A stretch of DNA of 64,000 nucleotides, taken from assembly GCA_041653595.1 (NCBI GenBank), contig JBAZFB010000001.1:4467-68466 (forward strand), in the 5' to 3' direction. Shown here piece by piece: positions 19,042 to 34,776 of the stretch. Each line of letters starts with the position of its first letter. Within the stretch, counting starts at the first letter, position 1. The translations under genes and the position numbers were made by a program. Under the pieces are notes generated by a model. It was given only the letters and a program-made list of their open reading frames with translations, made no database searches and was not told where the DNA came from. The DNA is from Candidatus Omnitrophota bacterium. Lineage in GTDB: Bacteria; Omnitrophota; Gorgyraeia; Pluralincolimonadales; Pluralincolimonadaceae.

Positions 19042-19155
19042 CTTCGTTTTGACCTATCTCTCCGGATATACGTAATTATAGACGCATAAAAAAATATGAG
19101 AATTGGCTAATTCACCTTTTTATTGACTTTTTTCCACCGAGCACACCACGAATCG

Positions 19156-19707: not shown

Positions 19708-19721
19708 CCTTATGTTCCTCC

Positions 19722-19816
19722 TTTTATTTAGCTGGTTTTATTATAGGGGTAATGTCTTGCTATATCAAGGATTTTTGGGTATCAGGGAGGGATTTACTCG
19801 CGGAATTTGAGGCCAC
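19722..19816 (-). repeat. Promoter cassette copy 1 (-35 TTGATA at 19763-19768, -10 TATAAT at 19740-19745 on the minus strand, 17-bp spacer) plus the upstream arm GGAATTTGAG…
   Basis: Read directly from the sequence; about 80-90% identical to the copies at 22255, 25821 and 33681. Confidence 0.55.
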
Positions 19817-19873
19817 TATTAAGAAAATTTTGGGGCAGGGATCTTGGACCCCTGCCCCATCTCTAAACGAAAC

Positions 19874-20464
19874 TTACTTAACTGACTTTTTTCTGTTGAA
19901 ACCAAACAAACCGACCAATCCTGAGCCGAGCAAAAGCATGCTTGCCGGTTCCGGAACTGCCTGCGCATCAAAGTTGGCATTGTCGAAGTAGACATCATTG
20001 CCGCTATGGCTAGTAGGAGATACCAGAACATAACCCAGCTTTGCCGTCGTGGCGCCGTCCGGCGCTACCGTCCATGGAGTTTCAAAGTACGTCCAGTCGG
20101 TATTAGCGGTTGTAAGCTTGGCGCTCTCTACGGCCGTTCCCGCACCATCCCACTGGAACTGTATCCAAGCGCTACCGGTATCTAAACCGGCAGATTTCAG
20201 ATAGCCGCTTGCCTTATAGGCAACACCCCCCGTAACATCAACCGTCTGTTCGAACTTCCCATCGGCGTAGTTCCATGACCAAGCATGCGCTGACTGGGCG
20301 CCGCTCATCTTTACCTCTGTAACATAGTTGCTATCACCCCAGTTGCTCCAACCAGTGCCGGTTTCAAACCCAGGGTCGCTGAGCAAGTTAGCGGATGCTG
20401 TTGACGGCGTTGAGATAAGCGCGACTGCCATGATCACCAAAGTTGCAAAATAGAATTTCTTCAT
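19874..20464 (-). CDS. Secreted CBM4_9-like protein, paralog 2, with a C-terminal PEP-CTERM sorting signal
   Basis: Signal peptide, LLSDPGFETGTGW…, and a C-terminus VPEP-ASMLLLGSGLVGLFGF-NRKK, which is the canonical PEP motif plus TM helix plus basic tail. Confidence 0.7.
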   Translation of the reverse strand: MKKFYFATLVIMAVALISTPSTASANLLSDPGFETGTGWSNWGDSNYVTEVKMSGAQSAHAWSWNYADGKFEQTVDVTGGVAYKASGYLKSAGLDTGSAWIQFQWDGAGTAVESAKLTTANTDWTYFETPWTVAPDGATTAKLGYVLVSPTSHSGNDVYFDNANFDAQAVPEPASMLLLGSGLVGLFGFNRKKSVK

Positions 20465-20503
20465 TTAACTATTTCACCTCCTCTCTTTTCTTTATTCTTG
20501 TAT

Positions 20504-20527
20504 GTTTCTGCTCACGAGAGCAGAAAC
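20504..20527 (-). promoter_or_regulatory. 10-bp perfect stem-loop (GTTTCTGCTC-ACGA-GAGCAGAAAC) in the leader of paralog 2, about 35 nt upstream of its start codon
   Basis: Perfect inverted repeat; it shares the core GCTC(A/T)CG(A/T)GAGC with the hairpin at 21162-21189. Confidence 0.4.
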
Positions 20528-20590
20528 ATTAAAAATCTGTCTCTAATATCCTTCTCATCGGGAATAAGATCTGTTGCTTACATTAATATA

Positions 20591-21136
20591 TTACGGGACC
20601 GTCCTGAAATCCGCATCATCAAAATAGCAAGACCCCGGAGTGTTCTTTTGGGCAGCCTGGATCACTACCTTGATCTTTGCTTTAGCGGCGCTTGGGGGCG
20701 CAATAGCCGTCGGAGTTGATAAGATCGCCCAAGTGTCGCTGGCGCCGGCAAGAGGAGAGCTCTTTACCGGGTCACCAATTATGGCGCTATCGGCAGTGCA
20801 CCATTCTATCTGTATCCACACCTTAGAATCGCCGGAAATAGGGTCGCTGGGTTTACTTAAAACAGAGACGCTCGCTTTATACTGCGTGCCGGGAATTACA
20901 TCGACATACTGCTCGAATACTCCATCGCCATAATCCCAAGCCCAAGCCTTTCCGGATTGTATACCGCTCTTATAGGTTTCAGTATCATATGTAGAGTCGC
21001 CGTACAGATCCCATCCAAGCGAATCAGCTTTTTCAAAACCCGGGTTGACAAGCAAGTTACCGTCAGCAGCGAATAAGGACAAAATGAAGAAAGTCAAAAC
21101 GAAAACAAGAATACAGCCTACGCATACCCCTTTCAT
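20591..21136 (-). CDS. Secreted CBM4_9-like protein, paralog 3 (start at MKGVCVG, preceded by AAAGGAGGAAGG)
   Basis: LLVNPGFEKADSLGW…; about 70% identical to paralog 1; no PEP-CTERM. Confidence 0.65.
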   Translation of the reverse strand: MKGVCVGCILVFVLTFFILSLFAADGNLLVNPGFEKADSLGWDLYGDSTYDTETYKSGIQSGKAWAWDYGDGVFEQYVDVIPGTQYKASVSVLSKPSDPISGDSKVWIQIEWCTADSAIIGDPVKSSPLAGASDTWAILSTPTAIAPPSAAKAKIKVVIQAAQKNTPGSCYFDDADFRTVP

Positions 21137-21161
21137 GCTTCCCTTCCTCCTTTTTTTGATG

Positions 21162-21189
21162 CCTATGCTCTCGTGAGCATAAACATAGG
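21162..21189 (-). promoter_or_regulatory. Nested stem-loop CCTATGCTC-TCGTG-AGCAT-AAA-CATAGG in the leader of paralog 3, downstream of a TTGACA–17–TAACCT promoter (21187-21215)
   Basis: Inverted repeats read directly; -35 TTGACA at 21210-21215 and -10 TAACCT at 21187-21192 on the minus strand. Confidence 0.4.
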
Positions 21190-21234
21190 TTACCATATAG
21201 GCTTTATAATGTCAAGCCGATTTTATTGCTTTTT

Positions 21235-22233
21235 TTAGGTTGATTTTCTAATAACAAGTTTTGGCTCAAAAAAACGCGTGTAGTCCTTATTTTTGCCTTG
21301 GGGGATGACATTTTTGATCAATGTCTCGGCAGCCGCAAAGGCCATATCTTTTACCGGCTGAGAAATCGTAGATAAGGAAGGAGAAAAATTTTCACAGCTC
21401 GGTATATTGTCAAAGCCGATCACGGCTATATCTTTGGGTATATCCCTGCCGGCTTGTTTAATAGCTGACATCGCCGCAAGGGCCATCCTATCGTTTGCGG
21501 CAAAGACAGCGTCGGGGGGTTCTTTTAATGATAACAGCCTTTCGATGGCCAGTTTCTCATAATTAACATGATTATTATCATCGTTATATTGCACGTATTC
21601 AATTATTACCTGTTTGTCCGCCTCTTGTAAAGCTTTTTTATATCCTCTGAATCTATCCTCGGCATCCACCCAGTTCTTGTGGCCATGAATGAACGCTATC
21701 CTCTTGCGGCCGGAATCCAATAAATATTTTGTTGCCAGATAGCCTCCCGTAACATTATCGCAGTCGAAAGAAGAAAGATCCTTAAGATGCGAACATAAAA
21801 GGACTAAGGGTACCTTTTTATCCTGCAATCCAAGCACGTCTTTATAATTGTCTTTTCCGATAGCCGGCAAGATAAAACCTGATACTGATTTATTCAGATA
21901 CGTATTCAAACATTCAAAACTATTAAATTTATCCTGGGTAAATAACATGACTTGATAGCCTTCTTTCTTGGCGGCTTCACTTACACCTTTGATTATTTCC
22001 TGGACATAAGGCTCCATACTAAAGAGGCCTCCTCCAAAGAAAAGAAGCCCAAGGACGTTTATTTTTCCCGAAAGAAGTCTGGCGGAATGGATATTAGGAG
22101 CGTAGGGTTCTTTTTTAAGGTAATCCAGCACCAAAGCGCGGGTTTTTTCCGAAACATACCTGTCTTCCCTTAAGACCCGCGCTACGGTAAACCTTGATAC
22201 TTTTAATTTTTTTCCTATTTCCCTAAGGGACAT
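21235..22233 (-). CDS. LacI-family transcriptional regulator
   Basis: N-terminal helix-turn-helix LREIGKKLKVSRFTVARVL and a periplasmic-binding-protein-like C-terminal domain. Confidence 0.85.
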   Translation of the reverse strand: MSLREIGKKLKVSRFTVARVLREDRYVSEKTRALVLDYLKKEPYAPNIHSARLLSGKINVLGLLFFGGGLFSMEPYVQEIIKGVSEAAKKEGYQVMLFTQDKFNSFECLNTYLNKSVSGFILPAIGKDNYKDVLGLQDKKVPLVLLCSHLKDLSSFDCDNVTGGYLATKYLLDSGRKRIAFIHGHKNWVDAEDRFRGYKKALQEADKQVIIEYVQYNDDNNHVNYEKLAIERLLSLKEPPDAVFAANDRMALAAMSAIKQAGRDIPKDIAVIGFDNIPSCENFSPSLSTISQPVKDMAFAAAETLIKNVIPQGKNKDYTRFFEPKLVIRKST

Positions 22234-22254
22234 TGAAGCCTTAATCTCCTTCTC

Positions 22255-22325
22255 TCCTTAATTAGCTGGTTTTATTATAGGGATAATATCTTGCTATATC
22301 AAGGATTTTTGGGGATTAAAGGCGT
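22255..22325 (-). repeat. Promoter cassette copy 2 (-35 TTGATA at 22297-22302, -10 TATAAT at 22274-22279), positioned to drive the LacI regulator
   Basis: TTGATA, a 17-bp spacer, TATAAT, then AAAACCAGCTAA, as in the other copies. Confidence 0.55.
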
Positions 22326-22332
22326 CATCTCC

Positions 22333-24945
22333 CTATCGCCCCGCATACGCAAAGCGGGTCTGGAGCCGGATGTCGCGGGATGAACTGCCGACGAGAATGT
22401 CGAATTCGCCGGGTTCGGCGACCCAACCCTTCGCCTCAGCGTCGTAGAACGCGAGGGCTCGCTCGTTCAAACGGAAGATGACCTGCTTCGTTTCGCCCGG
22501 CGCCAACTCCACCTTCTCGAACCCCTTGAGCTCCTTCACGGGGCGGAGCAGGCGGGACTCGACATCGTGGACGTAGAGTTGCACGACTTCCTTGCCCTTG
22601 CGCTTGCCCGTGTTCGTGATGTCCACGCTAGCGACAAGGGTCTTGGGGTCCACATTCAGGTTGCTGTACTTGAATGTCGTGTAGGACAATCCGTGCCCGA
22701 ACGGGAAAAGGGGTTCCACGTTCCGAGTGTCGTAGTAACGGTAGCCGACCAGCAGGCCTTCCTTATACTCGCAGTCCTTATCGTTGTACTGCCCGATCGC
22801 GTGGGCTGGACAGTCCTCGAGCCGCTTGGGAAACGTGATCGGCAGCTTGCCGGAGGGGTTGACGTCACCGAACACGATGTCGGCCACGGCGTTTCCGGCT
22901 TCCATGCCGGCATACCACGTCTGGACCACGCAGGGCACTTTGTCGATCCACGGCATCTCTACGGCGCTGCCGGAGATCAGGAACACGGCAGTGCGCGGAT
23001 TGGCCGCCGCGACTGCCTCGATCAACTCGTTCTGCCGCCCGTGCAGCCGGATGTCACGACGGTCCTCACCCTCCATGTCGTACCGATGGTTCTGGCCCGC
23101 GAACACCAGCACGGCATCTGCCGCGCGCGCCGCCTTGATCGCCTCGGCAAATTCGACTTCGGGGCCGACGCGGGAGTCCGGCCGGACCCAACCCAGTTTG
23201 ACCATCGCATCGCCGCTGGATTCATAGTACTCCACCTCGAAGCGGTAGGTCTGGCCCGCGGCCAACTCGATCTTCGCGTCTTTCCGTTCCTCTGCATGAT
23301 CGGCCCAGTTGTCGATCACCACCTTGCCGTTGATCTTCAGCCTCGAACCGTCGTCGCTCGTGAGGCCCAAGTTATAGATCCCGTTGGCAGTCGGCAGGAT
23401 ATCAGCCGTCCACCGCGCGGAGAAGTTATCCTTGGATACACCTGCGGCCGGACCCAGGTCCTTCCAGTTAAAGTCCATGGCCTTCTCATACCGGATCTCG
23501 ACCGGCTGACCATTCAGATTACGGTTGTTGAAGTACTCGCCCTTCCAACTCCGGATGTTTGACTTGGGATCCGTGGTCTGCACATACTTATCGCTGATCG
23601 CTTCGAAGACCGTGGCGTCGCCCGTGTCCCGGTAGCCCTCCACGTACGTGATCTTAACCATTCCCCCGCCCTTGCGTTTCAGCCCCTCGAGCGGGGTGAT
23701 TTCGTAAAGCGCGCGGATCGCCGAACTGCCGCCTTGATTCGCATGCTGCATGACGGCGTTCTCGCCGATCACCGCGAGCTTCAGTGTCTTGTTAATGTCG
23801 AGCGGCAGGACGCCGTCGTTCTTCAGCAGCACCATCGCCTCGCCGGCGACATCCCGGACCGCCTGCTGGTTTGCGGCGGTGTTGCGCGATCCGGTCTTGC
23901 GTGTCGACGGATCAAGCATACCGGCCCGGATCATGAAGCGGAGGATCCGCCGGACCTTGTCGTCGACGACGCTCTCCGGAATCTCCCCGCGCTCGACGGC
24001 CTGCCGAAGGGGATTCGCAAAGAAGAAGGTGTCGTAGTTGTCCGACGTGCCCATCTCTATATCGAGCCCGTTCACCGCGGCATCGCGCGTGCTGTGCGTT
24101 CCGCCCCAGTCCGAAATACAGACGCCGTCGAACCCCCACTCCCCCTTGAGAATGTCGTTCACGAGGTACTTGTTCTCCCCGCACCACTGTCCCCGGAACT
24201 TGTTGTAGGAGGTCATGATAGTCCAGGCACCCGCGCGGACGGCCGCCTCGAACGCCGGCAGGTAAATTTCGCGCAGGGTGCGCTCGTCGGCCACCACGTT
24301 GACCCAACCGCGGTTCCACTCCTGGTTATTCAGCGCGTAGTGCTTCACGCACGCCGCCACATCGTTGCTCTGGATGCCGCGCACCACCTCGGACGCCATC
24401 TGGCCGACTTGGTACGGGTCCTCGCCGTAATACTCAAAATTGCGGCCACAGACGGGAGTGCGGACGATGTTGATGCCGGGGCCCAGGAGGATGTCCTTGT
24501 TACGATGACGCGCCTCCGTGCCCAATGTTTCGCCGAATCGGCGTCCCATTTCCCGATTCCAAGTCGATGCCAGCGCGGAGCCGGTCGGGAGATAGGTCAC
24601 GTAGTCATCCTCCCACCCCGCGGGCTCCCAGGAGTTGGCGGCGGTTTCGCGCCGTACTCCGTGCGGGCCGTCGGACATCGCCACACGGGGGATCCCCAGC
24701 CGTTCAATCCCGGCGGTATTGAACTTCGAATTGGCGTGGCAAAGCGAAAGCTTTTCGGCCAGCGACATCTGCTTCAGCAGGTCATTGATGCGTGTTTCAA
24801 TTGCCGGCACCGGCGCGAGGTTCTCAGCTTTGTCGATAGCGGTCGCGGCAACAGCTTGAGTTTCTGATCCAAAACCCTGGAGTCCGCCGCATGATATAGT
24901 GAATGTTACCAGAAGTGTGACGAAAATGTACTTAAACATATTCAT
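22333..24945 (-). CDS. GH3 beta-glucosidase (BglX-like) with a PA14 insertion and a C-terminal Fn3-like domain; secreted or lipoprotein. GC-rich gene.
   Basis: GH3 motifs (KHYALNNQE, GFDGVCISDWGG), a PA14-like segment (FSARWTADILPTANGIYNLGLTSDDGSRLKINGK), and an N-terminus MNMFKYIFVTLLVTFTISCGG. Confidence 0.9.
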   Translation of the reverse strand: MNMFKYIFVTLLVTFTISCGGLQGFGSETQAVAATAIDKAENLAPVPAIETRINDLLKQMSLAEKLSLCHANSKFNTAGIERLGIPRVAMSDGPHGVRRETAANSWEPAGWEDDYVTYLPTGSALASTWNREMGRRFGETLGTEARHRNKDILLGPGINIVRTPVCGRNFEYYGEDPYQVGQMASEVVRGIQSNDVAACVKHYALNNQEWNRGWVNVVADERTLREIYLPAFEAAVRAGAWTIMTSYNKFRGQWCGENKYLVNDILKGEWGFDGVCISDWGGTHSTRDAAVNGLDIEMGTSDNYDTFFFANPLRQAVERGEIPESVVDDKVRRILRFMIRAGMLDPSTRKTGSRNTAANQQAVRDVAGEAMVLLKNDGVLPLDINKTLKLAVIGENAVMQHANQGGSSAIRALYEITPLEGLKRKGGGMVKITYVEGYRDTGDATVFEAISDKYVQTTDPKSNIRSWKGEYFNNRNLNGQPVEIRYEKAMDFNWKDLGPAAGVSKDNFSARWTADILPTANGIYNLGLTSDDGSRLKINGKVVIDNWADHAEERKDAKIELAAGQTYRFEVEYYESSGDAMVKLGWVRPDSRVGPEVEFAEAIKAARAADAVLVFAGQNHRYDMEGEDRRDIRLHGRQNELIEAVAAANPRTAVFLISGSAVEMPWIDKVPCVVQTWYAGMEAGNAVADIVFGDVNPSGKLPITFPKRLEDCPAHAIGQYNDKDCEYKEGLLVGYRYYDTRNVEPLFPFGHGLSYTTFKYSNLNVDPKTLVASVDITNTGKRKGKEVVQLYVHDVESRLLRPVKELKGFEKVELAPGETKQVIFRLNERALAFYDAEAKGWVAEPGEFDILVGSSSRDIRLQTRFAYAGR

Positions 24946-25010
24946 ACCTTTGCTCCTTTTTATACAAATCATTTAATAATAGCTCCTTTTTTCATTGTTT
25001 CTCTTTATAT

Positions 25011-25024
25011 TGCCCACGTGGGCA
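25011..25024 (-). promoter_or_regulatory. Perfect 14-bp palindrome TGCCCACGTGGGCA (LacI-family operator architecture TG-N4-CG-N4-CA) inside the putative GH3 promoter spacer (TTAAAC–17–TATAAA)
   Basis: The palindrome is seen directly. It lies exactly between the candidate -35 and -10 elements, about 40-60 nt upstream of the GH3 start. The LacI-family regulator is the next gene downstream. Confidence 0.35.
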
Positions 25025-25102
25025 TAGTTTAACACATAATCACCCTTTTTCAAGAGAAATTTACTGCTTTTTTTATGGGAATTCTTGGCAAGGCTACACC
25101 AA

Positions 25103-25807
25103 TTACACGATTTTTCCAAAAAGGGCACCCACGGCGGCCGTCAACGCCATTGCTAATGCTCCCCAAAACGTAACGCGAATAGCTGCTCTCGCTATGGGTG
25201 CTCCGCCTACGAATGCCGCCAGCGCCCCTAACCCCGCGAGAAAAACAAGCGTGACCCCAAAAACAACGGGAACCAATTTCGTTCCCGGAACTACAAACAC
25301 GATGAGAAGCGGCATCGCTGCGCCGACAGAAAAACTCGCTGCCGATGCCCACGCGGCTTGTAACGGGTGAGCGATGAAATTAAGAGAGATGCCGAGTTCG
25401 TCACGGGCGTGTGCCGACAATGCGTCATGGGCCATCAATTGCTCGGCAACCTGTTTTGCGAGCGGCGGATCCAGTCCCCGGCCCTCGTAGATTGACGCCA
25501 GCTCCCTGTGCTCGTTTTCATTATCTACATCGAGTTCCTTGCGCTCGCGCGCCAGGTCTGCTCTTTCGGTATCGGCCTGTGAGCTTACCGATACGTACTC
25601 GCCGGCCGCCATTGACATCGCCCCTGCGACCAAACCGGCGACGCCGGCGACCAATACTGAACCTCTAGACGCGTGAGCCGCAGCTACGCCCACAATGAGG
25701 CTTGCGGTTGATACTATCCCATCGTTCGCGCCCAGAACTGCGGCACGTAACCAACCAATCCGGTACGTACGATGATGTTCCCTATGACTACTTCTGGCCG
25801 CCACCAT
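25103..25807 (-). CDS. VIT1/CCC1-family (DUF125) iron/manganese transporter
   Basis: LRAAVLGANDGIVSTASLIVGVAAA and the C-terminal TM repeats. GC-rich like the GH3 gene. Confidence 0.8.
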   Translation of the reverse strand: MVAARSSHREHHRTYRIGWLRAAVLGANDGIVSTASLIVGVAAAHASRGSVLVAGVAGLVAGAMSMAAGEYVSVSSQADTERADLARERKELDVDNENEHRELASIYEGRGLDPPLAKQVAEQLMAHDALSAHARDELGISLNFIAHPLQAAWASAASFSVGAAMPLLIVFVVPGTKLVPVVFGVTLVFLAGLGALAAFVGGAPIARAAIRVTFWGALAMALTAAVGALFGKIV

Positions 25808-25820
25808 TGTATCTTCCTTT

Positions 25821-25926
25821 CAGCCGAGGGAAACCTCTCTAATTTAGCTGGTTTTATTATAAGGGTTATATCTTAGTATTTCAATAATTTTTGCGGAATT
25901 AGAGAGGGGTTTTATCGCGAAATTTT
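25821..25926 (-). repeat. Promoter cassette copy 3 (-35 TTGAAA at 25879-25884, -10 TATAAT at 25856-25861) with a 5'UTR module AGAGAGGTTTCCCTCGGCTG; positioned to drive the VIT gene
   Basis: Read directly from the sequence. Confidence 0.55.
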
Positions 25927-26382
25927 TAATATTTTGTAGTGTAGAATACCTGCCGGAATTTTTATCTCTATTGCTTCGCCCTCTTTATGATTTATTAAAC
26001 CTTTGCCGACAGGCGATGAAACGGATATCTTCCCCTGCTTATAGTCCGCCTCTACCTCAGAAACCAGCATATACACTATCTTCTCTTCTGTATCCAGGTC
26101 CTCGAGCTCTACTGTCGCGCCGATCAAAATCTTGTCTTTAGGCATCTCTTCATCATTAAGAATACGCACATAGGCCAGCTTCGCTTCCAACTCGGCTATC
26201 TTTTTTTCATTAAAAGCCTGATCTTCCTTGGCGGCATCATATTCGGAATTCTCAGAAATGTCTCCGTGATCCCTGGCTTCTCCTATAGCTTTCGATAATT
26301 GCCTGCGCTTCACCGTTTTTAAGCGCTCCAGGTCCTTTACCAATTTTTGATAACCTTCTTCGGTCAGATATATATCGCTCAC
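25912..26382 (-). CDS. greA: Transcription elongation factor GreA
   Basis: GreA/GreB N-terminal coiled coil and a C-terminal FKBP-like domain (SPVGKGLINHKEGEAIEIKIPAG). Confidence 0.9.
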   Translation of the reverse strand: MSDIYLTEEGYQKLVKDLERLKTVKRRQLSKAIGEARDHGDISENSEYDAAKEDQAFNEKKIAELEAKLAYVRILNDEEMPKDKILIGATVELEDLDTEEKIVYMLVSEVEADYKQGKISVSSPVGKGLINHKEGEAIEIKIPAGILHYKILKISR

Positions 26383-26383
26383 A

Positions 26384-28210
26384 TTAGTTATCCTGCGAAA
26401 ATATTACTACTGTGTATGGCCCGATATTGATTTTTCCGGAGCAAGGCAACCCATCGATTTTTTCCTCATGGGCCTCGACATCAGGGGTAGGATGATTTGC
26501 AAAATTTGGGCCGTATTTATATGAGTCGCTGTTAAATCGCGTTTTCCACAATCCGGCCCGCGGAAAACCGATGACATAACCATCGCAGTTTTGATTTATC
26601 ATATTTACCACCACAACTACGCTATCGGCCGGGCCTTGTTTGTCCCAGCGATGGAAAGCGATGATCTTGGCTCCATCGTCAAAATGATAGATATGGGTAT
26701 TTTGACCGCACAACCCACGCGTCACACCCGATAGATTGCGCCGCAACGCGATCAGGTCCCTGTACATTCCAAAAATACCGTGTTCATCCTCAACACGGGA
26801 CCAGTCGATCGGGTCTTTATCCTGGAACCAGCGGTCTTCCAGCAACTCTTGCCCTTCAAAAATCATCGGGATGCCCGGTGAAGTAAGGACAAGAGCGCCG
26901 GCCAAAGTAGAACGTTTCTTGGAAAACCAGCTATCCACCTTGCCCGGCCAGATCTCCTCCGGCACCCTGGACCGGCCATTGGCGACCTCGTCATGGGACT
27001 CTGTATAAATAATCCGCCGAAAGACGTCTAGATCGTAACGATGCTCGATAGCTTTACTGACTGCCCCCAGATCACGGAGTTTATCATCACGTGTGATGAC
27101 GGCCTGGCGAACGGGGTGAACGAATTCGGCATCCCATTGCGCGTTAAAACCTGCGCCGCCCGCTCCTACATTTTTGATGACCCAGGGGTTATTTTTCATG
27201 CTTTCGCCGATGCTGATCTTGCCGGGAAACAATTGTTGGATCTCCGTATTGATCCACTGCATCAAGCTCCAGCCTTCGGGGATGGCATTAGCCGAATTGT
27301 TGTCACTACCGTCAATGCTTTTGATATAGGCTATCATGTCCCAGCGTAATCCGTCGGCGCGGTACTCCTCGAACCACATCAGGGCGTTATCGCGCAAATA
27401 TTGGCGCACTTCGCCCCGGCCGTAATCGGGGCGTGTCTCGCCCCAGGGCGTTTGCGAGCAACGATCATTGTAAAAGAAGATTCCTCCCTTATTATTTTCG
27501 CTCCAACCGTCAAACTGCCACAAACTAAGATCGCCCGGGCCAAAGTGGTTGTAGACGACATCTATGATAACAGCGATACCATGTTCATGGGCCGCCTTCA
27601 CAAATCGCTTGAGCGCATCCGGCCCGCCGTAAATACTCTCAACGGCAAAGGGAAGCGCCGGATTGTAGCCCCACGAAAAATCACCTGCAAACTCCGCGAC
27701 AGGCATCACTTCGATGGCATTGATACCCAATTTTTTGAGATAAGGGAATTTTTCAATGGCACTATCAAAAGTGCCCGGTTGTCCCTTTTTTTTGACGTTA
27801 AAAGTGCCGATGTGCATCTCGTAAATGACAAGCTCATTCCCCGTGGCCATATGAAACTTATTATCACCCCAGTCAAAGGCTTTGGGGTCATAGATAACTC
27901 CGTTGCCGGTTGAGCCGGTCACCTTTCTGGCATAAGGATCGATGCGGGAAAGAGGAGGAAGCTTCCAATCGACAGGGGTGTGGATCATATACCTGTACTC
28001 ATCTCCCGCTTTTGCTCCCGGCACGCCGATCGACCAGTAACCGCCCTCTTCTTTGGCCAGGGGTATCGAGGTATCGTTCCATTCGTTGAAGGTTCCGGCC
28101 ACATAAACCTTTTCTGCATGCGGCGCCCATACGCGAAACGTTACACCCCTTGCACCGGGTATGGCCCCCATGCTCGGGCGCTTTATCGCGTTATTGGTTT
28201 TTTTTGGCAT
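26384..28210 (-). CDS. GH13 alpha-amylase-family enzyme with an N-terminal CBM48 (TreZ/GlgX/GlgB-like)
   Basis: CBM48 segment (GVTFRVWAPHAEKVYVAGTFNEWN) and GH13 conserved regions (DVVYNH, GLRWDM, IGES, YTESHDE). Confidence 0.85.
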   Translation of the reverse strand: MPKKTNNAIKRPSMGAIPGARGVTFRVWAPHAEKVYVAGTFNEWNDTSIPLAKEEGGYWSIGVPGAKAGDEYRYMIHTPVDWKLPPLSRIDPYARKVTGSTGNGVIYDPKAFDWGDNKFHMATGNELVIYEMHIGTFNVKKKGQPGTFDSAIEKFPYLKKLGINAIEVMPVAEFAGDFSWGYNPALPFAVESIYGGPDALKRFVKAAHEHGIAVIIDVVYNHFGPGDLSLWQFDGWSENNKGGIFFYNDRCSQTPWGETRPDYGRGEVRQYLRDNALMWFEEYRADGLRWDMIAYIKSIDGSDNNSANAIPEGWSLMQWINTEIQQLFPGKISIGESMKNNPWVIKNVGAGGAGFNAQWDAEFVHPVRQAVITRDDKLRDLGAVSKAIEHRYDLDVFRRIIYTESHDEVANGRSRVPEEIWPGKVDSWFSKKRSTLAGALVLTSPGIPMIFEGQELLEDRWFQDKDPIDWSRVEDEHGIFGMYRDLIALRRNLSGVTRGLCGQNTHIYHFDDGAKIIAFHRWDKQGPADSVVVVVNMINQNCDGYVIGFPRAGLWKTRFNSDSYKYGPNFANHPTPDVEAHEEKIDGLPCSGKINIGPYTVVIFSQDN

Positions 28211-28221
28211 CCTCTTTTCTC

Positions 28222-29199
28222 CTACAACCCGACTTCTTTAATAACTTCTTTGATAGCGCTTGAAGATTTTTTGAGCGCCTTCTCTTCTTTTTTAGTAAGC
28301 TCGAGTGTCAAAAGCCCTCTAACGCCGTTCTTGTTAACTACGGCGGGAAGGCTTAGATATACATCGCGCATATCCAGATAACCGGTGATCAGGCTTGACA
28401 CAGGCAAGACCGCGTTTTCATCATGAAGGATCGCCTGTGTTATCCTTGCCAAAGACAGGCCGATCCCATATGACGTCTCGCCCTTCTTTTCTATGATCTT
28501 ATAGGCGGAATCCCTTACTTCGAAAAATATTTCTTCCAGCTTTTCCTCGTGGCGGCACCCGTGTCTGTCGCCGCACACTGAACAATAATTTTTAAACAAA
28601 ACCCCGCCGATCGTAGCGTTACTCCAAATAGGCGATTCACTATTCCCGTGCTCGCCCAGAATATAGGCATGGACGTTGTGCGGATCTATTTTACAGTGCT
28701 TGGCTAAAAGGAACCGGAAGCGCGCCGTATCCAGAACCGTCCCGGAGCCGATCACTTCATTTGCCGGCTTAGACGAAAATTTGTAAGCCGCGTACGATAG
28801 GATATCTACGGGATTGGTTGCAATCAAGAGGATGGCCGAAGGGGCATATTTGACTATCTGAGATACTACCTGCCGGAAGATCTCTACATTGTCTTTGGCA
28901 AGCGCGAGCCTGGTCTGGCCGGGCTTTTGCTTCTTACCGGCGGTTATCACCACCAGATCGGAATCTTTTATATCCGGGTAGTCTCCGGAGGCGATCTCAA
29001 CCGGTGAGAGATAAGGCGCGCCGTGGGACAGGTCCATGACTTCCCCTTCAAGGCGCTTTTTGTCCATATCGGTTATAACAACGCTTCTTGCCAGCCCTTT
29101 CATGATCAGCGCGTAGGCATAACGCATCCCCACGTTACCGCAACCGATGATTGAAACCTTTGGTCTTAATTCAGTTGTAGATTTACTGGTGGCGATCAA
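28222..29199 (-). CDS. L-lactate/malate dehydrogenase (TTG start overlapping the upstream TGA)
   Basis: KVSIIGCGNVGM Rossmann motif, a GQTRLALAKDN substrate loop, and IGEHGNSE. Confidence 0.9.
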   Translation of the reverse strand: MIATSKSTTELRPKVSIIGCGNVGMRYAYALIMKGLARSVVITDMDKKRLEGEVMDLSHGAPYLSPVEIASGDYPDIKDSDLVVITAGKKQKPGQTRLALAKDNVEIFRQVVSQIVKYAPSAILLIATNPVDILSYAAYKFSSKPANEVIGSGTVLDTARFRFLLAKHCKIDPHNVHAYILGEHGNSESPIWSNATIGGVLFKNYCSVCGDRHGCRHEEKLEEIFFEVRDSAYKIIEKKGETSYGIGLSLARITQAILHDENAVLPVSSLITGYLDMRDVYLSLPAVVNKNGVRGLLTLELTKKEEKALKKSSSAIKEVIKEVGL

Positions 29200-29345
29200 A
29201 GCGGTTTACGTCCGCTGATCAAACGCAAAAGAATAACGACAATAGCGATGACGAGCAAGACGTGTATAAACCCGCCCAAAGTGTATGAGGTGACCAGACC
29301 TAACAGCCAAAGCACGACCAAAATAACCGCGATTGTGTATAACAT
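29196..29345 (-). CDS. lmo0937-family small membrane protein (49 aa), copy 2; not in the ORF track
   Basis: A GGAGG ribosome-binding site then [49 protein letters not shown]; about 90% identical to copy 1. Confidence 0.6.
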   Translation of the reverse strand: MLYTIAVILVVLWLLGLVTSYTLGGFIHVLLVIAIVVILLRLISGRKPL

Positions 29346-29484
29346 GCTCCGCCTCCTTTTATGATGATATTATATAAGTATACGGCCTTGAATTAATTAT
29401 ACCATTTCAGTGGTACAAATATCAAGCGAGGCACACCACGCCCCTTTAGGGGCGGACATTTGTGCACTGTGTGGGAATTTTATC

Positions 29485-29964
29485 TTATTTTTCTTTCAGG
29501 TTCTCGAAGGTCTCCTCATGGGTTATCTCTTCGCTCATTATGTGGGTGACGAGCTGGTAGGTCGCGTGGTCTTTACCGAAGGTCTTTTTGGCGATCTTGT
29601 TATAGACCTCTATCGCCCCAGCTTCCGCGGCTGTGACTAGCTTGATTATCGTGTCGTAATCGTGTAAGTTCTTCATCACGCCCGGATACGGGCTGTTCGC
29701 GTTCTTCTCAATGTCGCTCAGGCTGCTTGTCGGGATGCCGCCAAGCTTGACTATTCTGTCCGCCAATTCCGTGGCATGCTCGAGCTCGTCCTTGGCAATC
29801 TTGCCCAGGAACTCGGCCATATCCTCATAGCCCTTCCCGTCAACGGTCTGAGACATGAACCACCACGCGTAGTAAGCGAGCCACTCGTCGCAATACGCCT
29901 TATTCAGGTCCTTGATAAGGTCCTTCAGGTCGATCCCGACTATTTCCCTGGCTTTCTTGCCCAT
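29485..29964 (-). CDS. Ferritin-like (bacterioferritin/Dps/rubrerythrin superfamily) protein
   Basis: 159-aa four-helix-bundle-type sequence with the E…EXXH metal-site spacing (DELEHATELADRIV…EEITHEE). Confidence 0.55.
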   Translation of the reverse strand: MGKKAREIVGIDLKDLIKDLNKAYCDEWLAYYAWWFMSQTVDGKGYEDMAEFLGKIAKDELEHATELADRIVKLGGIPTSSLSDIEKNANSPYPGVMKNLHDYDTIIKLVTAAEAGAIEVYNKIAKKTFGKDHATYQLVTHIMSEEITHEETFENLKEK

Positions 29965-29995
29965 TTTAACCCTCCTTTTTTTATGTTGCTCCCCA

Positions 29996-31975
29996 TTAAG
30001 GAATCCCTATTATAAGAAACAATCTCCCGACAAGCCCGCCTATCGTAACAGCCAGGACAATGGTAAACAATGATATTATCAGACTTTTCTTCCAGCCAAA
30101 CTCATGCTTTAAAACCGCAAGGGTCCCAATGCAAGGGAAGTACAAGGCAACAACCAGGGCGAATATGAATATCTGCAGAGGAGTCATAAAATTCAACAGG
30201 CTCGAGCTTCCCCCGAGCACAAACAGCAATGCTAATGCCATTTCTTTTCTTAGTATTCCGTAGATCAGCGTAATACCCGCAACAGCAGGGAGCATAAGCC
30301 AGCCGTTAATAATCGGAGAAAAGGGTTTTGCGAGGATTTCGAGGATACCATAAGCTTTGAGCAGGCCCAAGACAATAGAGCCTATGATAATCAAGGGAAA
30401 TGCGATCCCGATAAAACCTCTTACTCTCATCCATGTCTTTTTCCAGACATTCTTAAGCTGGGGTAACCGGTATTCCGGCATCTCCATTATAAGCCCGGTC
30501 GATTCACCGGGCAGGAACTTCCCAAGGATGTAGCCAACCGCAAATATAAGCAATAACACGATCCCATAGATCAAAAGCGCATAACCTGCCCCGATAAATT
30601 TCCCGACTGCGCCGAAGATAACAGCAGTCCTTGCTGAACATGGGATCATGCAAATCAAAATGGAGGTCAATATCCTGTCTTTCTTATTAGGCAATATGCG
30701 CGTTGCAAGCACTGCCGGAACGCTGCAGCCGAATCCGAGCATCATTGGTATGATGGCGTTGCCGTGCAAGTGCATCTTATGCATTAACCTGTCCAAAAGA
30801 TAAGCCATGCGGGGAAGATACCCTGTATCTTCCAATGCGCCCAGCGCCAGATAAAAGACAAAGATATACGGCAGCGCTATTTGCATCCCTGCATTTACGC
30901 CTTGCAGCCCCCAGCTAAGAGTTGTCTGCAAAATCGTACTCGGGATCACCTTTATGAGGGGGGCCGTTGGGTTAGTGACAATTATGTCAAACCATTTCCC
31001 GACCAGGTCGCTAAGATAATTCCCCACCGTAAACAGGGCGAAGAAAATCACGCTCATTACAATAACCAGCGAGATGCTTCCCGTCAGGGGCTCGGTCGTA
31101 AACCTGTCGAGAAAATCCTTAAAATGCTTTTTCGGCTTGCCCTTAATCATTACTTTCTGGGCTATTAATGCCGCCTGGCCATGGCGCTCCCGCGCGATCT
31201 CCGTATTAAGATCAAGGGCATGCTCTTTGCTGAGTTCATCTATGATCCTTCTGATCTTTTCCTTATGCCCGGCTTTCCCCCATTCAACATCATCTTCTTC
31301 AAGCAGGTTGATTGCCGCCGCTCGTTTCGGGATATCATCCTCTTCGACGATCCCCGCGATCTTATCAATTGCCCTTTCTATATGGTCATCATATATAACA
31401 TTATAATGATCGAGATCGGCAGGACCGCTCATAACAGCATCTATTGTCCTGACCAGCAGGTCTATGCCTGCTCCGCGCAACGCATCAATAGGCACAACAG
31501 GCACGCCCAGTAATGCGCTCAGGTTTTTATAATCTATGCTGATGCCCTTATCTTCTAACTCTTCATAAAAATTCAAGGCTATGACCATCGGGACCTGCAG
31601 CTCCAGTAATTGCAGGGTCAGGTAAAGATTGCGCTCTAAAAGCGCGGCATCCACCATATTTACTATTACGCCGGGCTTTTTCTCAATAATATAATCGGTG
31701 GCGACTCTTTCATCATCGCTTGATGAGCCAAGATTGTATATGCCTGGCAGATCAGCTACATGCAGAACCTTATCGCCAATTGCGGTTTTGCCCTCAAGGA
31801 TCTCGACAGTCGTTCCCGGATAATTTGATACTATAGCATCAGTAGTAGTAAGCTGGTTAAAAAGGCAGCTCTTGCCTGTATTTGGATTTCCGGCAAGCAC
31901 AATATCTGCGCCGCAAACTTTTGCGCCGAATTTATGCATATAGGCTTTCCCTGAAAGCCGGGGATGGCAGCTCAT
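29996..31975 (-). CDS. feoB: Ferrous iron transporter FeoB (start set at MSCHP, ATGA-coupled to the upstream gene)
   Basis: G-domain GNPNTGKSCLFNQLT and the polytopic membrane domain. Confidence 0.9.
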   Translation of the reverse strand: MSCHPRLSGKAYMHKFGAKVCGADIVLAGNPNTGKSCLFNQLTTTDAIVSNYPGTTVEILEGKTAIGDKVLHVADLPGIYNLGSSSDDERVATDYIIEKKPGVIVNMVDAALLERNLYLTLQLLELQVPMVIALNFYEELEDKGISIDYKNLSALLGVPVVPIDALRGAGIDLLVRTIDAVMSGPADLDHYNVIYDDHIERAIDKIAGIVEEDDIPKRAAAINLLEEDDVEWGKAGHKEKIRRIIDELSKEHALDLNTEIARERHGQAALIAQKVMIKGKPKKHFKDFLDRFTTEPLTGSISLVIVMSVIFFALFTVGNYLSDLVGKWFDIIVTNPTAPLIKVIPSTILQTTLSWGLQGVNAGMQIALPYIFVFYLALGALEDTGYLPRMAYLLDRLMHKMHLHGNAIIPMMLGFGCSVPAVLATRILPNKKDRILTSILICMIPCSARTAVIFGAVGKFIGAGYALLIYGIVLLLIFAVGYILGKFLPGESTGLIMEMPEYRLPQLKNVWKKTWMRVRGFIGIAFPLIIIGSIVLGLLKAYGILEILAKPFSPIINGWLMLPAVAGITLIYGILRKEMALALLFVLGGSSSLLNFMTPLQIFIFALVVALYFPCIGTLAVLKHEFGWKKSLIISLFTIVLAVTIGGLVGRLFLIIGIP

Positions 31976-32604
31976 TTTTTCTCCACAAATATGCTCGCGC
32001 AAACATCGGGCCCTAGGGCGATCTTGCTTCCTTTTATATTCAAGATCAGGGGTCCTCCGTTTAATTTGCGCACTACCCTGACTTTTGCCTGAGGAACAAA
32101 CCCGAGTGAATTCAAGCGCTCAAAGCATGCCTTGCTCTTGCTGGCTACAAACACAACCTCTGCCTTGCTTTTCTCCGGAAGCTGAGTCAACTCTACTACG
32201 TTGCTGTTCTTGTCGGGAATAGGATTGCCATCCGGACAAAGCTTCGGCTTCTTCAGCATGCTATCAAGCTTATCCGTTGCCGCGTCAGATAAAGCATGTT
32301 CCATGGCATGCGCTTCCTCATGGATATCTTTTTTTATTTTCAGATTTAGTACCCTGCTGAAAAAGACCTCCAGAAGCTGATGCTTTCTGACTATTTTTCT
32401 GGCTTCTTTGATCCCTAAGGCAGTAAGGCTGATCCCGCCGAAACGCTCGAAAGTAACTAATTTCTCCTTTTCAAGCCTTCTTATCATTTCGGAAACGCTT
32501 GGATCGGAAACCTTAAGCACACGTGCCAGTTCAGTAACCCTTGCAGCGCGGTTATTGCGGTACTGGATCATATACATTTCTTCGAGGTAATCTTCTTTTT
32601 TCAT
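31972..32604 (-). CDS. DtxR/MntR-family metalloregulator fused to a C-terminal FeoA (SH3-like) domain
   Basis: Helix-turn-helix RVTELARVLKVSDPSVSEMIRRLE, a dimerisation/metal-binding region, and a C-terminal FeoA-like segment VRKLNGGPLILNIKGSKIALG. Confidence 0.78.
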   Translation of the reverse strand: MKKEDYLEEMYMIQYRNNRAARVTELARVLKVSDPSVSEMIRRLEKEKLVTFERFGGISLTALGIKEARKIVRKHQLLEVFFSRVLNLKIKKDIHEEAHAMEHALSDAATDKLDSMLKKPKLCPDGNPIPDKNSNVVELTQLPEKSKAEVVFVASKSKACFERLNSLGFVPQAKVRVVRKLNGGPLILNIKGSKIALGPDVCASIFVEKK

Positions 32605-32614
32605 GGTCTTAATG

Positions 32615-32632
32615 TTAGGTTATCCTAACTTA
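32615..32632 (-). promoter_or_regulatory. DtxR-type iron box TTAGGTTATCCTAACTTA immediately upstream of the DtxR-FeoA/feoB operon
   Basis: Near-palindrome matching the TWAGGTWAGSCTWACCTWA consensus at about 14 of 19 positions, at the expected promoter position. Confidence 0.45.
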
Positions 32633-32679
32633 TTTATATAAGTTTATCACAGTTAAGTTATAAGTCAAGTAATTAATTT

Positions 32680-32727
32680 TTGAAAAAATAAAAAACGGCT
32701 ATGATCGCTGTTTCGACCATAGCCGTT
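32680..32727 (-). terminator. Rho-independent terminator: 10-bp stem AACGGCTATG/CATAGCCGTT followed on the minus strand by TTTTTTATTTTTT
   Basis: Read directly from the sequence; it lies downstream of the two-gene operon at 32797-33662. Confidence 0.6.
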
Positions 32728-32760
32728 AATCTCTCCCATTATCCGAGGAGAACGGAATTA

Positions 32761-32803
32761 CTGGGGTCCCTCTCCTATTTCATGAGGGGAAACCTCTCAA
32801 TTT
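32761..32803 (-). repeat. Partial copy of the cassette's 5'UTR module (GGGGTCCCTCTCCTATT…GAGGGGAAACCTCTC) with no promoter
   Basis: Matches positions 33681-33720 of copy 4. Confidence 0.4.
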
Positions 32804-33348
32804 TCCTTAACGAGATTTTTCAGCAGGTCTTCAATAATGCCGATATCTTTATCCTCAACCTGGCCTGAAGCGTAATATCTTATGATACCTTTCTTATTTA
32901 TGATTATCACATTGCTTTCGTCTTCCTTGGCGTGATAATCAGCGGACATTTTTCCATCCCAGTCGCCGTATATCGTCAACTTTTCCTTTTCCGAATTATG
33001 CCGGAGGTTCTTTTCCCACTCTCTTCTAAACAATACGCCTTGGCAATCGATCACTCCTATCCTGACAATATCTTTTTTTACGGAATCGGATTGTTCGTCG
33101 TAAAACACATCAAGGCTGGTCTTTAGTTTTCGGTTTTGCTCGATAGCGATTTTTGCTTCATAAAACAATACCACCACTTTGCCTTTTATATCATCTAAGG
33201 TCAATGCTTCTTTATCTCCCGATATGATTTTGAAAGAAGGGGCGGAGCTGCCGATTAAGCTGTCGTTTGCGGAATAGGCTGCAGATAATAAGAGTGGGGT
33301 GACGAGAAAAGAAACGATAAAAATTAAACGTGCCCTACGCATCACCAT
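32797..33348 (-). CDS. Secreted thioredoxin-fold (AhpC/TSA-like) protein lacking the peroxidatic Cys
   Basis: Signal peptide, then SAPSFKIISGDKEALTLDDIKGKVVVLFYEA, which resembles peroxiredoxin/TlpA substrate-entry motifs but has no Cys. Confidence 0.45.
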   Translation of the reverse strand: MVMRRARLIFIVSFLVTPLLLSAAYSANDSLIGSSAPSFKIISGDKEALTLDDIKGKVVVLFYEAKIAIEQNRKLKTSLDVFYDEQSDSVKKDIVRIGVIDCQGVLFRREWEKNLRHNSEKEKLTIYGDWDGKMSADYHAKEDESNVIIINKKGIIRYYASGQVEDKDIGIIEDLLKNLVKEN

Positions 33349-33662
33349 AACAAGTACCTAAATTGACCGATAGCGTTCATCCCTGCCGCGAATTGTCCCA
33401 GACCAAATATTAATCCCAATGCAAACTGGGCGACCGCAAATATTCCCACAGCAAACTGCGCTAAACCAAATATTAAACCGACTGCGAACTGCCCTATTGC
33501 GATTATGCCTATCGCGAATTGCCCGATCGCAATAACGCCTTTTGCCACAAGAAGTTTTCCTGTTTTGCGGTCTTTCCCGAAGGCGATGTGCACGAAGGGT
33601 AAGCCGAAAATTTCCGTCTTGCTCCTCCATTCATAACCGATATTCCAAATATCTTTTATCAT
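33342..33662 (-). CDS. Small (106-aa) protein whose C-terminal 70 aa are about 7 tandem decapeptide repeats of the form [IL]A[IV]GQFA[IV]G[IL]
   Basis: …GVIAIGQFAIGIIAIGQFAVGLIFGLAQFAVGIFAVAQFALGLIFGLGQFAAGMNAIGQFRYLLW. It is the first gene after promoter cassette copy 4. Confidence 0.5.
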   Translation of the reverse strand: MIKDIWNIGYEWRSKTEIFGLPFVHIAFGKDRKTGKLLVAKGVIAIGQFAIGIIAIGQFAVGLIFGLAQFAVGIFAVAQFALGLIFGLGQFAAGMNAIGQFRYLLW

Positions 33663-33680
33663 TTAAGTTACCGTTGAGAA

Positions 33681-33796
33681 TTGGGGTCCCTTTCCTATTA
33701 GGCGAGGGAAAACCTCTCTTATTTGGCAGGCTTTATTATAGAGGTAATATCCTACTATATCAAGGATTTTTGGGGACCAGAGAGGTAATTCCTCGC
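33681..33796 (-). repeat. Promoter cassette copy 4, the most complete (-35 TTGATA at 33758-33763, -10 TATAAT at 33735-33740) with a roughly 95-nt leader module
   Basis: Read directly from the sequence. Confidence 0.55.
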
Positions 33797-34564: not shown

Positions 34565-34642
34565 TGGGGTGGCTGACGGGGATCGAACCCGCGACCCTTA
34601 GAACCACAATCTAATGCTCTAACCAGCTGAGCTACAGCCACC
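34565..34642 (-). tRNA. tRNA-His (GTG), with G-1 and an encoded CCA
   Basis: Manual fold: G-1, acceptor GTGGCTG/CAGCCAC, anticodon loop TTGTGGT, T-loop TTCGATC. Confidence 0.85.
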
Positions 34643-34663
34643 GCAGATCTAATTTTCAATTTT

Positions 34664-34741
34664 TGGCGCGCCTGGGGCGATTCGAACGCCCGACACCCTG
34701 CTTAGAAGGCAGGTGCTCTATCCAACTGAGCTACAGGCGCG
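34664..34741 (-). tRNA. tRNA-Arg (TCT)
   Basis: Manual fold: acceptor GCGCCTG/CAGGCGC, anticodon stem CCTGC/GCAGG, loop CTTCTAA. Confidence 0.85.
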
Positions 34742-34776
34742 TTGGCCCGCCCATCTGAGCGGGTAAATCTAATTTT

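Follow-up and report, generated by a model that had tools for sequence, protein, structure and literature searches.

An intergenic repeat found in four copies in a 64,000-nt stretch of contig JBAZFB010000001.1 (assembly GCA_041653595.1, Candidatus Omnitrophota bacterium; this whole stretch is called the window below) is best explained as a lineage-specific promoter and 5'-leader module of an Omnitrophota clade. The module, conserved across no fewer than ten related species, precedes unrelated genes in the window and in about ten other Omnitrophota genomes, and other promoter-like sites of the window have unrelated spacers, in line with the original prediction that it represents a portable promoter, i.e., a discrete and reusable unit. 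Going beyond that prediction, the upstream arm and the leader were found to form inverted repeats, the module to constitute an inter-species family, and relatives to carry a predicted, terminator-ended transcript unit devoid of open reading frames (ORFs).

Sequence Conservation and Architecture of the Module

All four copies are located on the minus strand, at 19721–19807, 22251–22324, 25815–25923, and 33679–33802, where they had been placed originally. Repeat detection assigned them to one 86-nt family (D4), and an nhmmer profile built from them recovered all four at E values of 1e-24 to 1e-33. Their pairwise identity is 79–89% over the 57-nt core and 65–82% over 79 nt, so that the identity of at least 80% claimed for the full copies describes the core, approximately, and not the longer alignment. 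The block shared on the minus strand consists of CAAAAAT-nn-TTGA(T/A)A, 17 bp, TATAAT, and AAA(A/G)CC(A/T)GC(T/C)AA, the last part being also given as AAAaCCaGCtAA. The sequence AAAACCAGCTAA, described originally as following TATAAT in every full copy, is replaced by AAAGCCTGCCAA in the copy at 33679–33802.

In a promoter consensus scan each window copy matched 11 of 12 hexamer positions (TTGATA or TTGAAA and TATAAT) with a 17-bp spacer, as had been noticed before, and the same holds in relatives. The five best promoter sites between 18 and 36 kb are these four copies and an unrelated site at 29425 with an 18-bp spacer. The 41-nt degenerate core was expected 0.00 times from shuffled sequences and found 3 times; the corresponding values for TATAATAAAACCAGCTAA are 0.02 and 4. 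A profile search of the other 50 kb of the window gave no further copies; the profile also matched an arm-only fragment at 246–282 (E 1e-6), which had been recognized as a partial copy near 246–286.

The minimal unit of about 57 nt comprises an UP-like A-tract (CCCCAAAAATCC), TTGATA, a nearly fixed 17-bp spacer, TATAAT, and AAAACCAGCTAAAT. The proximal subsite of UP elements reportedly reads AAAAAARNR and lies at −46 to −38 (Estrem et al.). In the full unit, about 125–145 nt in length, a CGGACA-N3-CGGACA box and a left arm (CGCGAGGAAATCCCTCTCTAAT) are added upstream, and a right arm with leader (ATTAGAGAGGTTTTCCCTCGCGCAATAGGAGAGGGACCCCA), predicted to be transcribed, downstream; the first 22 nt of this right arm repeat the left arm in inverted form. 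Across the family the consensus reads AAATTCCGCGAGGAAATCCCTCTCTAATCCCCAAAAATCC TTGATA TAGTAAGATATTACCCC TATAAT AAAACCAGCTAAATTAGAGAGGTTTTCCCTCGCGCAATAGGAGAGGGACCCCA. The upstream arm and the leader form mutual inverted repeats of 24–32 nt, the greatest length being attained in relatives, 75–83% complementary and separated by 51–59 nt. Taken singly, the arms are small palindromes as well (GAGG-N5-CCTC). The motif CAAAAAT, 2 nt upstream of the −35 hexamer, is invariant in the four window copies and near-invariant family-wide. Conservation reaches at least 17 nt to the left (CGGACA box) and at least 19 nt to the right (CAATAGGAGAGGGACCCCA) of the inverted repeats. The CGGACAAAACGGACA box is located directly upstream of the left arm in many copies of other genomes, and in the window only at 383–369, beside a promoter-less left arm.

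About a third of the copies, including two of the four in the window, retain the core and are devoid of any leader, and many copies lack one arm. In a diverged subfamily (L047_8118 and L055_5339; labels beginning with L denote loci or contigs of relatives compared with the window), the arms and leader are kept around a different promoter core, suggesting that they are selected independently of the core. The spacers of the promoter of the tRNA operon at 34936 and of the promoter-like sites at 29425 and 32668 are unrelated to that of the module, and the sites preceding the tRNA operon, the dtxR-like gene, and the DUF1328-like gene differ from it in both spacer and flanks. These differences rule out that the module is the generic promoter of this organism.

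The full copy at 33679–33802 (minus strand; nhmmer E 5e-40, profile positions 4–127; promoter 11/12) begins directly past the stop codon of ORF 33797–34531. It comprises a left arm (33779–33802), the A-tract, −35 (33763–33758) and −10 (33740–33735) hexamers, a predicted transcription start near 33728, a right arm (33719–33696), and the leader module (33718–33682); its inverted repeat is 24 nt long and 83% complementary, with arms 59 nt apart. On the same strand it is followed by an operon (32797–33662) encoding a GQFA-repeat membrane protein (33342–33662) and an AhpC/TSA-like, peroxiredoxin-like protein (32797–33348). The copy at 25815–25923 (minus strand; nhmmer E 6e-22) has a diverged left arm joined to the final codons of greA, −35 (25884–25879) and −10 (25861–25856) hexamers, a predicted start near 25849, and a truncated leader. 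A perfect 11-nt inverted repeat, CCTCTCTAATT/AATTAGAGAGG, is present in this copy, and the AGGA(A)G region of the module serves as the Shine-Dalgarno sequence of a VIT1-family transporter gene (25103–25807, minus strand; PF01988, E 4e-70).

The core-only copy at 22251–22324 (minus strand) consists of the A-tract, −35 (22302–22297) and −10 (22279–22274) hexamers, and AAAACCAGCTAA, with a predicted start near 22267. It has neither left arm nor leader: upstream of the core are about 15 nt and the end of a GH3 gene, and downstream it continues directly into the Shine-Dalgarno sequence of a LacI-family regulator (21235–22233), the first gene of a minus-strand cargo region (19874–22233) that also encodes a paralog resembling carbohydrate-binding module (CBM) proteins (20591–21196) and a PEP-CTERM protein (19874–20464). 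The copy at 19721–19807 (minus strand) combines a left arm with the core (−35 at 19768–19763, −10 at 19745–19740, predicted start near 19733). The terminator of the preceding gene (19859–19831) lies upstream of it, and its similarity to the other copies stops at the Shine-Dalgarno sequence of the gene for a CBM-like secreted protein (19156–19707), which forms the minus-strand cargo region 18433–19707 together with a Ysc84/SYLF protein gene (18433–19041). Orthologous copies are present in L008 and L003. Thus the A-tract, predicted for every copy, occurs in all four, and the upstream arm is unrecognizable at 22251–22324; of the two predicted leaders, that at 33679–33802 is complete and that at 25815–25923 truncated.

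Pfam analysis of window ORFs, 26 of which were scanned between 0.4 and 38 kb, agreed with the earlier cargo assignments for the Ysc84/SYLF, VIT1, and LacI proteins, with a weak match for AhpC-TSA and a weak, sub-threshold one for CBM_4_9. The peroxiredoxin-like protein, described as Cys-less, contains one Cys.

An optional, partly palindromic motif, (TATAATA)TTTGCACCGTGC(AA), directly follows the leader module in four non-redundant copies (L003 2382–2392, L020 1896–1886, L047 7994–7984, and L057 8489–8499) and is absent from the window. A terminator-like palindromic hairpin, (A)AATGTCCGCC-N6-GGCGGACATTT, occurs in the window at 18383–18404 and 29436–29457 (−) and in L007 at 1299–1278. The CGGACA half-site of the box preceding the module recurs in this hairpin, which may represent either a further family of binding sites or a common terminator.

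Distribution and Genomic Setting

The strict core pattern, constructed from the window's own copies, was run over one genome per GTDB species, and a looser pattern over metagenome contigs, where the profile was then used to confirm loci. Both scans are pattern-based and copy totals are read as lower bounds; copy counts per genome rest on fragmented metagenome-assembled genomes (MAGs). Further copies were found by the strict pattern in at least 8 Omnitrophota-type MAGs with alignable flanks, one MAG being labelled Planctomycetales; three matches in AT-rich Firmicutes were obvious chance hits. The looser pattern gave at least 51 metagenome loci, 11 of which carry the profile, and one more, L032, duplicates L002. 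Complete identity (100%) to the window was found for two of the profile-bearing loci and one additional contig (metagenomes Ga0172380 and Ga0265297), and run SRR18595300 likewise includes contigs of 100% identity. After removal of duplicates, at least about 30 non-redundant copies remained in MAGs and metagenomes. Judged from these matches, the module family appears to be restricted to Omnitrophota. The contig labelled "uncultured Planctomycetales" (L013, CAZNGC010000145.1) contains two tandem copies and a greA gene with 75% nucleotide identity to that of the window; the bin label is probably wrong or the contig mis-binned.

The copy number is low (1–4 per genome, with only 1–2 strict matches per MAG), and the copies are clustered: three within 8 kb in L003, three within 8 kb in L005, three within 6 kb in L055, and four within 14 kb in the window. 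None was found in 69 kb of unselected sequence around an AsmA-like gene in four relatives with 63–92% amino-acid identity. Searches of plasmids and phages, which bear on a possible origin from a known insertion sequence or transposon end, revealed no insertion-sequence, plasmid, or phage relative, and viral contigs gave no profile-supported match. A viral origin was rejected, the single match to a viral contig being undetected by the profile and attributable to chance.

The window copies lie in a gene-variable stretch flanking the tRNA-Pro/Arg/His genes (34565–34854). A full copy located 1–1.5 kb past tRNA-His is also present in L002, L004, L014/L047, and L052. The ORFs on either side of this copy are non-homologous and differ in every genome. 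At this locus the module is 78–88% identical to the window copy, compared to 70–84% for the tRNA genes, and the sequence between them is essentially unalignable. A 244-aa ORF upstream of the tRNA-adjacent copy, considered as a cognate factor, was dismissed: its product looks secreted, has no significant Pfam match, and is absent from relatives. In another relative (L069 5174–9124), an integrated island with genes for a large serine recombinase, two DNA methylases, a ParB-methylase, DUF2924, and Vsr occupies the tRNA-His flank, the position of the module-rich flexible region in the window.

Orientation and Cargo Genes

All copies are intergenic. Every non-redundant copy for which the available downstream sequence allowed a judgement, about 27 of 30, faces a co-directional downstream ORF and none faces away; a same-strand ORF ends 0–300 nt upstream of all judged copies. 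The cargo in the window comprises the CBM-like secreted protein, LacI, VIT1, and the GQFA membrane protein with the peroxiredoxin-like protein, and in relatives KatG, PDZ and TPR proteins, carbonic anhydrase, DUF1646, and, in L052, greA. Reading of translations added MscS-like, glycosyltransferase-like, histidine-kinase-like, P-type-ATPase-like, and rhomboid-like proteins. These genes are functionally unrelated, making a single functional regulon unlikely. The original suggestion of a regulon with a shared regulator site gains likelihood from the conserved spacer, arms, and CGGACA-N3-CGGACA box; no function is common to the cargo, however. The idea that the module drives smpB in L056 was abandoned, the downstream ORF not being SmpB.

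The window region 25103–33662 is an iron/oxidative-stress gene cluster encoding the peroxiredoxin-like protein, a DtxR-like protein, FeoB, a ferritin/rubrerythrin-like protein, and VIT1; in L005, KatG stands behind a module copy. Upstream of ORF 31972–32604, which encodes a DtxR/IdeR-family repressor with FeoA domain and is directly followed by FeoB, a perfect palindrome, GTTAGGATAACCTAAC (32614–32629, minus strand), overlaps the promoter-like sequence TTGACT-16-TAAACT. Its resemblance to the classic DtxR box suggests that the dtxR-like gene is probably autoregulated. A DtxR/iron regulon defined by the module was rejected, as this palindrome is absent from the module and the cargo extends beyond metal genes.

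Gain, Loss, and Junctions of the Module

Comparison of orthologous loci revealed differences in module content. The CBM-like gene carries the module upstream in L003, L008, and the window; in L052 it has none and directly follows greA. The LacI gene has its own copy in the window and none in L003. A Cys-rich gene carries the module with leader in L004 and L055 and without leader in L008. Downstream of the Ysc84 gene there is a copy in L012 and none in the window.

The 3' flank of greA in L047 (90% nucleotide identity) represents an empty site. There greA ends with AAATTTCGCGATGA, followed by unrelated sequence, whereas in the window the KISR codons continue into the arm (AAATTTCGCGATAAAACCCCTCTCTAAT). 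The presence of the same 11 nt in L047 greA, where they align with the arm consensus AAATTCCGCGA, indicates that they existed before the module arrived; by our estimate, at least 10 of 12 matches at one fixed offset would occur by chance with a probability of about 4e-5. On the downstream side, similarity in all six leaderless copies (6/6) is lost exactly at the Shine-Dalgarno sequence of the cargo, aligned with the GAGAGG of the module. The word "recombinogenic," used in the original prediction, fits these junctions at pre-existing microhomology. In addition, the operon 33662–32797 is flanked by two diverged direct repeats of the module (33718–33682 and 32798–32762) that agree at 31 of 37 positions, the arrangement that one crossover between two copies would produce.

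ORF-Less Form and RNA Structure

Four loci of relatives (L007, the copy at 4438 in L005, L063, and L055) contain the promoter and module followed by a second CUCUC/GAGAG hairpin, a strong stem with a U-run, and no ORF; the predicted transcripts are 107–120 nt long. The second hairpin is kept in all four with differing sequences and lengths. Compared to L063 (1100–1105), L055 carries a 140-nt structured insertion (140–285) exactly after the GGGAC of the module, the point at which the cargo starts in other copies, and this position looks like an insertion hot spot.

The window holds such a small RNA (sRNA)-type unit in pieces, both on the minus strand. The promoter-less fragment 245–383 comprises the CGGACAAAACGGACA box (383–369), a hairpin (CCTGCTTCGCAGG), GTGCTCAAATT repeats, and a left arm (274–253), and is homologous to the region upstream of the sRNA-type loci in L007 and L005. 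The remaining piece, a promoter-less 3' unit (32690–32804), consists of the leader module (32798–32762), a second CUCUCC/GGGAGAG hairpin, and an intrinsic terminator (32727–32694), thereby verifying the leader-only copy predicted before a terminator, and shares 93% identity with the 3' part of the L007 unit.

Analysis of 20 leaders with RNAalifold predicted a CCCCUC/GAGGGG hairpin, and RNA structure in the leader is plausible on the basis of this model. The leader alone folds no better than shuffled sequences (z = −1.3), and the z-score of the 3' unit (−4.2) is dominated by the terminator. With the covariance models of Rfam 15, only tmRNA and tRNAs reached the gathering score, and nothing relevant appeared at E values up to 10 in the leader and sRNA-type regions. 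A passing resemblance of CAGAGAGG to the PyrR-binding loop was discounted because there was no Rfam match and the cargo genes are not pyrimidine genes. Neither CsrA nor Hfq was found in the sequences examined, an uninformative result.

Origin and Function of the Module

We consider it somewhat probable that the module acts as a strong sigma70 promoter with 5' leader, a functional cassette that multiplied by recombination and to which shared factors probably bind, and the observations fit a cassette under purifying selection over its whole length. Other explanations account for part of the data. Convergence of ordinary strong promoters on the sigma70 consensus, with neither common ancestry nor extra function, would be compatible with the hexamers and A-tract, typical of any strong promoter, but is hardly credible: copies and species agree at each position in spacer, discriminator, and flanks, the core had no matches in shuffles, and other promoter-like sites of the window differ. 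Only marginally less improbable is an inverton, in which a site-specific recombinase would flip the promoter between the inverted repeats and make accessory genes phase-variable, like the capsule promoters of Bacteroides or fimS. Several loci of one genome do carry a promoter within conserved inverted repeats, and much of the cargo is secreted or surface-associated; however, no OFF orientation occurs among the approximately 30 assembled copies, one repeat is missing in many copies, reverse-strand profile matches reflect only the weak self-symmetry of the arms, and no recombinase domain is encoded by the 26 window ORFs scanned.

A miniature transposable element with inverted repeats (MITE) of the Correia type deserves more attention. 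Such a non-autonomous element would have terminal inverted repeats and an internal sigma70 promoter, depend on a transposase encoded elsewhere, and be retained by selection where it drives a gene. The module, being small, non-coding, intergenic, and bracketed by inverted repeats, resembles such an element, its presence is polymorphic among relatives, it occupies a flexible region beside tRNA genes into which an island has integrated in a relative, and sigma70-promoter MITEs at 1–22 copies per genome are on record (PMC10969869). This origin is nevertheless rather unlikely, failing on target-site duplications, boundaries, orientation, and copy number. Target-site duplications were found in none of the 15 full-length copies, whose flanks share no k-mer above chance. 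Conservation continues past the repeats, many copies are one-armed and end at microhomologies rather than at repeat termini, and no copy is directed away from its downstream gene. Moreover, the unselected sequence is free of copies and MAGs yield only 1–2 strict matches, plasmids and phages gave no match, and the window ORFs scanned encode no transposase domain. Mobility in the transposon sense, raised in the original prediction, was therefore not upheld.

A partial alternative, unlikely although less so than the MITE, is that RNA is the unit under selection: the leader, joined in the complete form by the second hairpin and terminator, would act in cis as a regulatory attenuator or riboswitch-like element, or else form the 5' domain of a trans-acting sRNA, and the promoter would merely accompany it. 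ORF-less, terminator-ended units of 107–120 nt in four or more species, the second hairpin maintained despite varied sequence and length, and the subfamily with arms and leader around another core are in accordance with this possibility, as are the recurrence of the module in a 3' untranslated region (32798–32762) and the alternation of purine (GAGAGG) and pyrimidine (CCCUC, CUCUCC) boxes, which permits mutually exclusive hairpins. It explains only part of the data because the core persists in the third of copies that are leaderless. In addition, covariation and the folding score of the leader are weak, no Rfam family matches, the left arm lies upstream of the predicted start and thus outside the transcript, and the cargo functions are unrelated, unlike those of a riboswitch regulon.

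Several points also weigh against the promoter/leader cassette itself. Promoter activity and start sites are predictions from sequence, and the shared factors are putative. The leader hairpin covaries weakly, with 2 of 9 pairs compensatory and most columns invariant, and by our inspection the two arms show no consistent compensation of their changes, so that an RNA role and a cruciform role are both hypothetical. Microhomology junctions are few, amounting to one clean empty site and the Shine-Dalgarno pattern. The copy number, derived from fragmented MAGs with a window-derived pattern, may be an underestimate, and inverted repeats clustered in a flexible region would be expected of a decayed MITE family as well.

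According to the promoter/leader cassette model, the housekeeping sigma70 RNA polymerase would start about 7 nt past TATAAT, and the transcript would open with AGCUAAAU, continuing into either a stem-loop leader with purine and pyrimidine boxes or directly the Shine-Dalgarno sequence of the cargo. The spacer, arms, and upstream box match tRNA genes in their degree of conservation between species and for this reason are most likely binding sites of shared factors, candidates being a DNA-binding regulator, an RNA-binding factor acting on the leader, or both. The ORF-less RNA of about 110–120 nt, composed of promoter, leader, second hairpin, and terminator, looks like the ancestral or master form. 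New copies before protein genes would arise through duplication by recombination rather than cut-and-paste transposition, probably via joining at short homologies (the left arm and the Shine-Dalgarno-like GAGAGG box) and via Campbell-type exchange between copies. In the window the outcome would be four independently promoted accessory transcription units flanking tRNA-Pro/Arg/His.

A further proposal, speculative and in our opinion of low probability, is that the module is the promoter and 5' domain of a new conserved Omnitrophota sRNA. Genes capturing both by recombination would form a regulon, either co-regulated with the sRNA by a common factor that binds DNA or RNA or buffered by the sRNA acting as a decoy for this factor, and direct module repeats would serve as homology handles for excision and re-insertion of gene cassettes in the tRNA-flanking region.

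Omnitrophota are uncultivated, have no genetic tools, and their transcription control is almost undescribed. A compact cross-species module in front of unrelated genes is a candidate portable strong promoter and 5' untranslated region for this phylum, and points to an sRNA and to factors recognizing the CGGACA box, arms, and spacer. It also provides a concrete case in which promoter recruitment may be traced to microhomology junctions and not to transposition and, if confirmed, would show a route by which accessory genes beside tRNA genes gain expression signals.

Other Features of the Region

Three paralogous pairs with 76–85% nucleotide identity indicate a history of segmental duplication in the region: GH1 glycosidases (386–1810 and 11480–12874), small membrane proteins of about 55 aa, DUF1328-like in appearance (14022–14181 and 29191–29350), and the CBM-like secreted proteins (19175–19474 and 20604–20903). 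A second conserved intergenic block is located upstream of the GH3 gene (window 24989–25083, minus strand; L003 3214–3296; L008 6013–6107). Its features are the sequence TTGAAA-16-TAAACT and a perfect 14-nt palindrome, TGCCCACGTGGGCA, that may be an operator; part of the block (TAAAAAAAGCAaTAAA) recurs at 21237–21212. The promoter of a DUF134 gene in L007 (565–590, minus strand) has a 24-nt perfect palindrome, TGTTATGCACATATGTGCATAACA, directly past TATAAT. The window also encodes tRNA-Leu (47155–47241) and a tmRNA (44190–44541) with the tag ANELALAA, directly downstream of ORF 44542–45087. This ORF is SmpB by position, and its counterpart in L068 carries the SmpB Pfam domain.

Comparison with Known Repeats and Promoters

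Like rrn-type UP-element promoters, the module has hexamers close to the consensus, spaced by 17 bp, and an A-tract that immediately precedes the −35 hexamer. It differs in the additional fixation of the spacer, the discriminator, and about 60 nt of flanking sequence and in its reuse before unrelated accessory genes; the promoter of the window's own tRNA operon is not of the module type. Like fimS and the Mpi-dependent promoters of Bacteroides, it occurs at several loci of one genome as a conserved promoter framed by conserved inverted repeats, in front of accessory or surface genes. Unlike these, it has a single orientation, many copies with one repeat, and no invertase among the window ORFs scanned.

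Bacterial interspersed mosaic elements (BIMEs), the REP (repetitive extragenic palindromic) sequences, and the REPINs of Enterobacteria and Pseudomonas are likewise mosaics of short modules with palindromic arms (here GAGG-N5-CCTC) in inverted pairs; BIME/REP elements also occur in locus-specific combinations (arm only, core only, or module only, in the present case) between co-directional genes. However, REP/BIME sequences are high-copy, mostly 3' of genes, and devoid of promoters, while a consensus promoter is the invariant center of the low-copy Omnitrophota module. REPINs depend on the RAYT transposase.

The closest parallels are found among the Correia repeat enclosed elements (CREE) of Neisseria, MITEAba12, QMITE1, and BrickBuilt, which are non-coding intergenic repeats of about 100–150 nt with inverted repeats on both sides. 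Correia elements carry sigma70 promoters, are located upstream of genes, and have terminal inverted repeats forming hairpins cut by RNase III (PMC10969869). Like these and other promoter-bearing MITEs, the module has a sigma70-type promoter, often immediately upstream of genes, could be co-transcribed from upstream with its arms forming an RNA hairpin, and varies in presence between relatives (PMC10969869). In contrast to them, it has no TA or other target-site duplication and is conserved past its repeats; its promoter is central and reads through one arm, whereas theirs lie at the element ends; it is very low-copy, clustered, and always in gene-driving orientation, with partial copies ending at microhomologies; and it has no known transposase partner. 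Although membership in the MITE class is not supported, the Correia element, judged by analogy, appears to be the nearest functional analogue of the Omnitrophota module.

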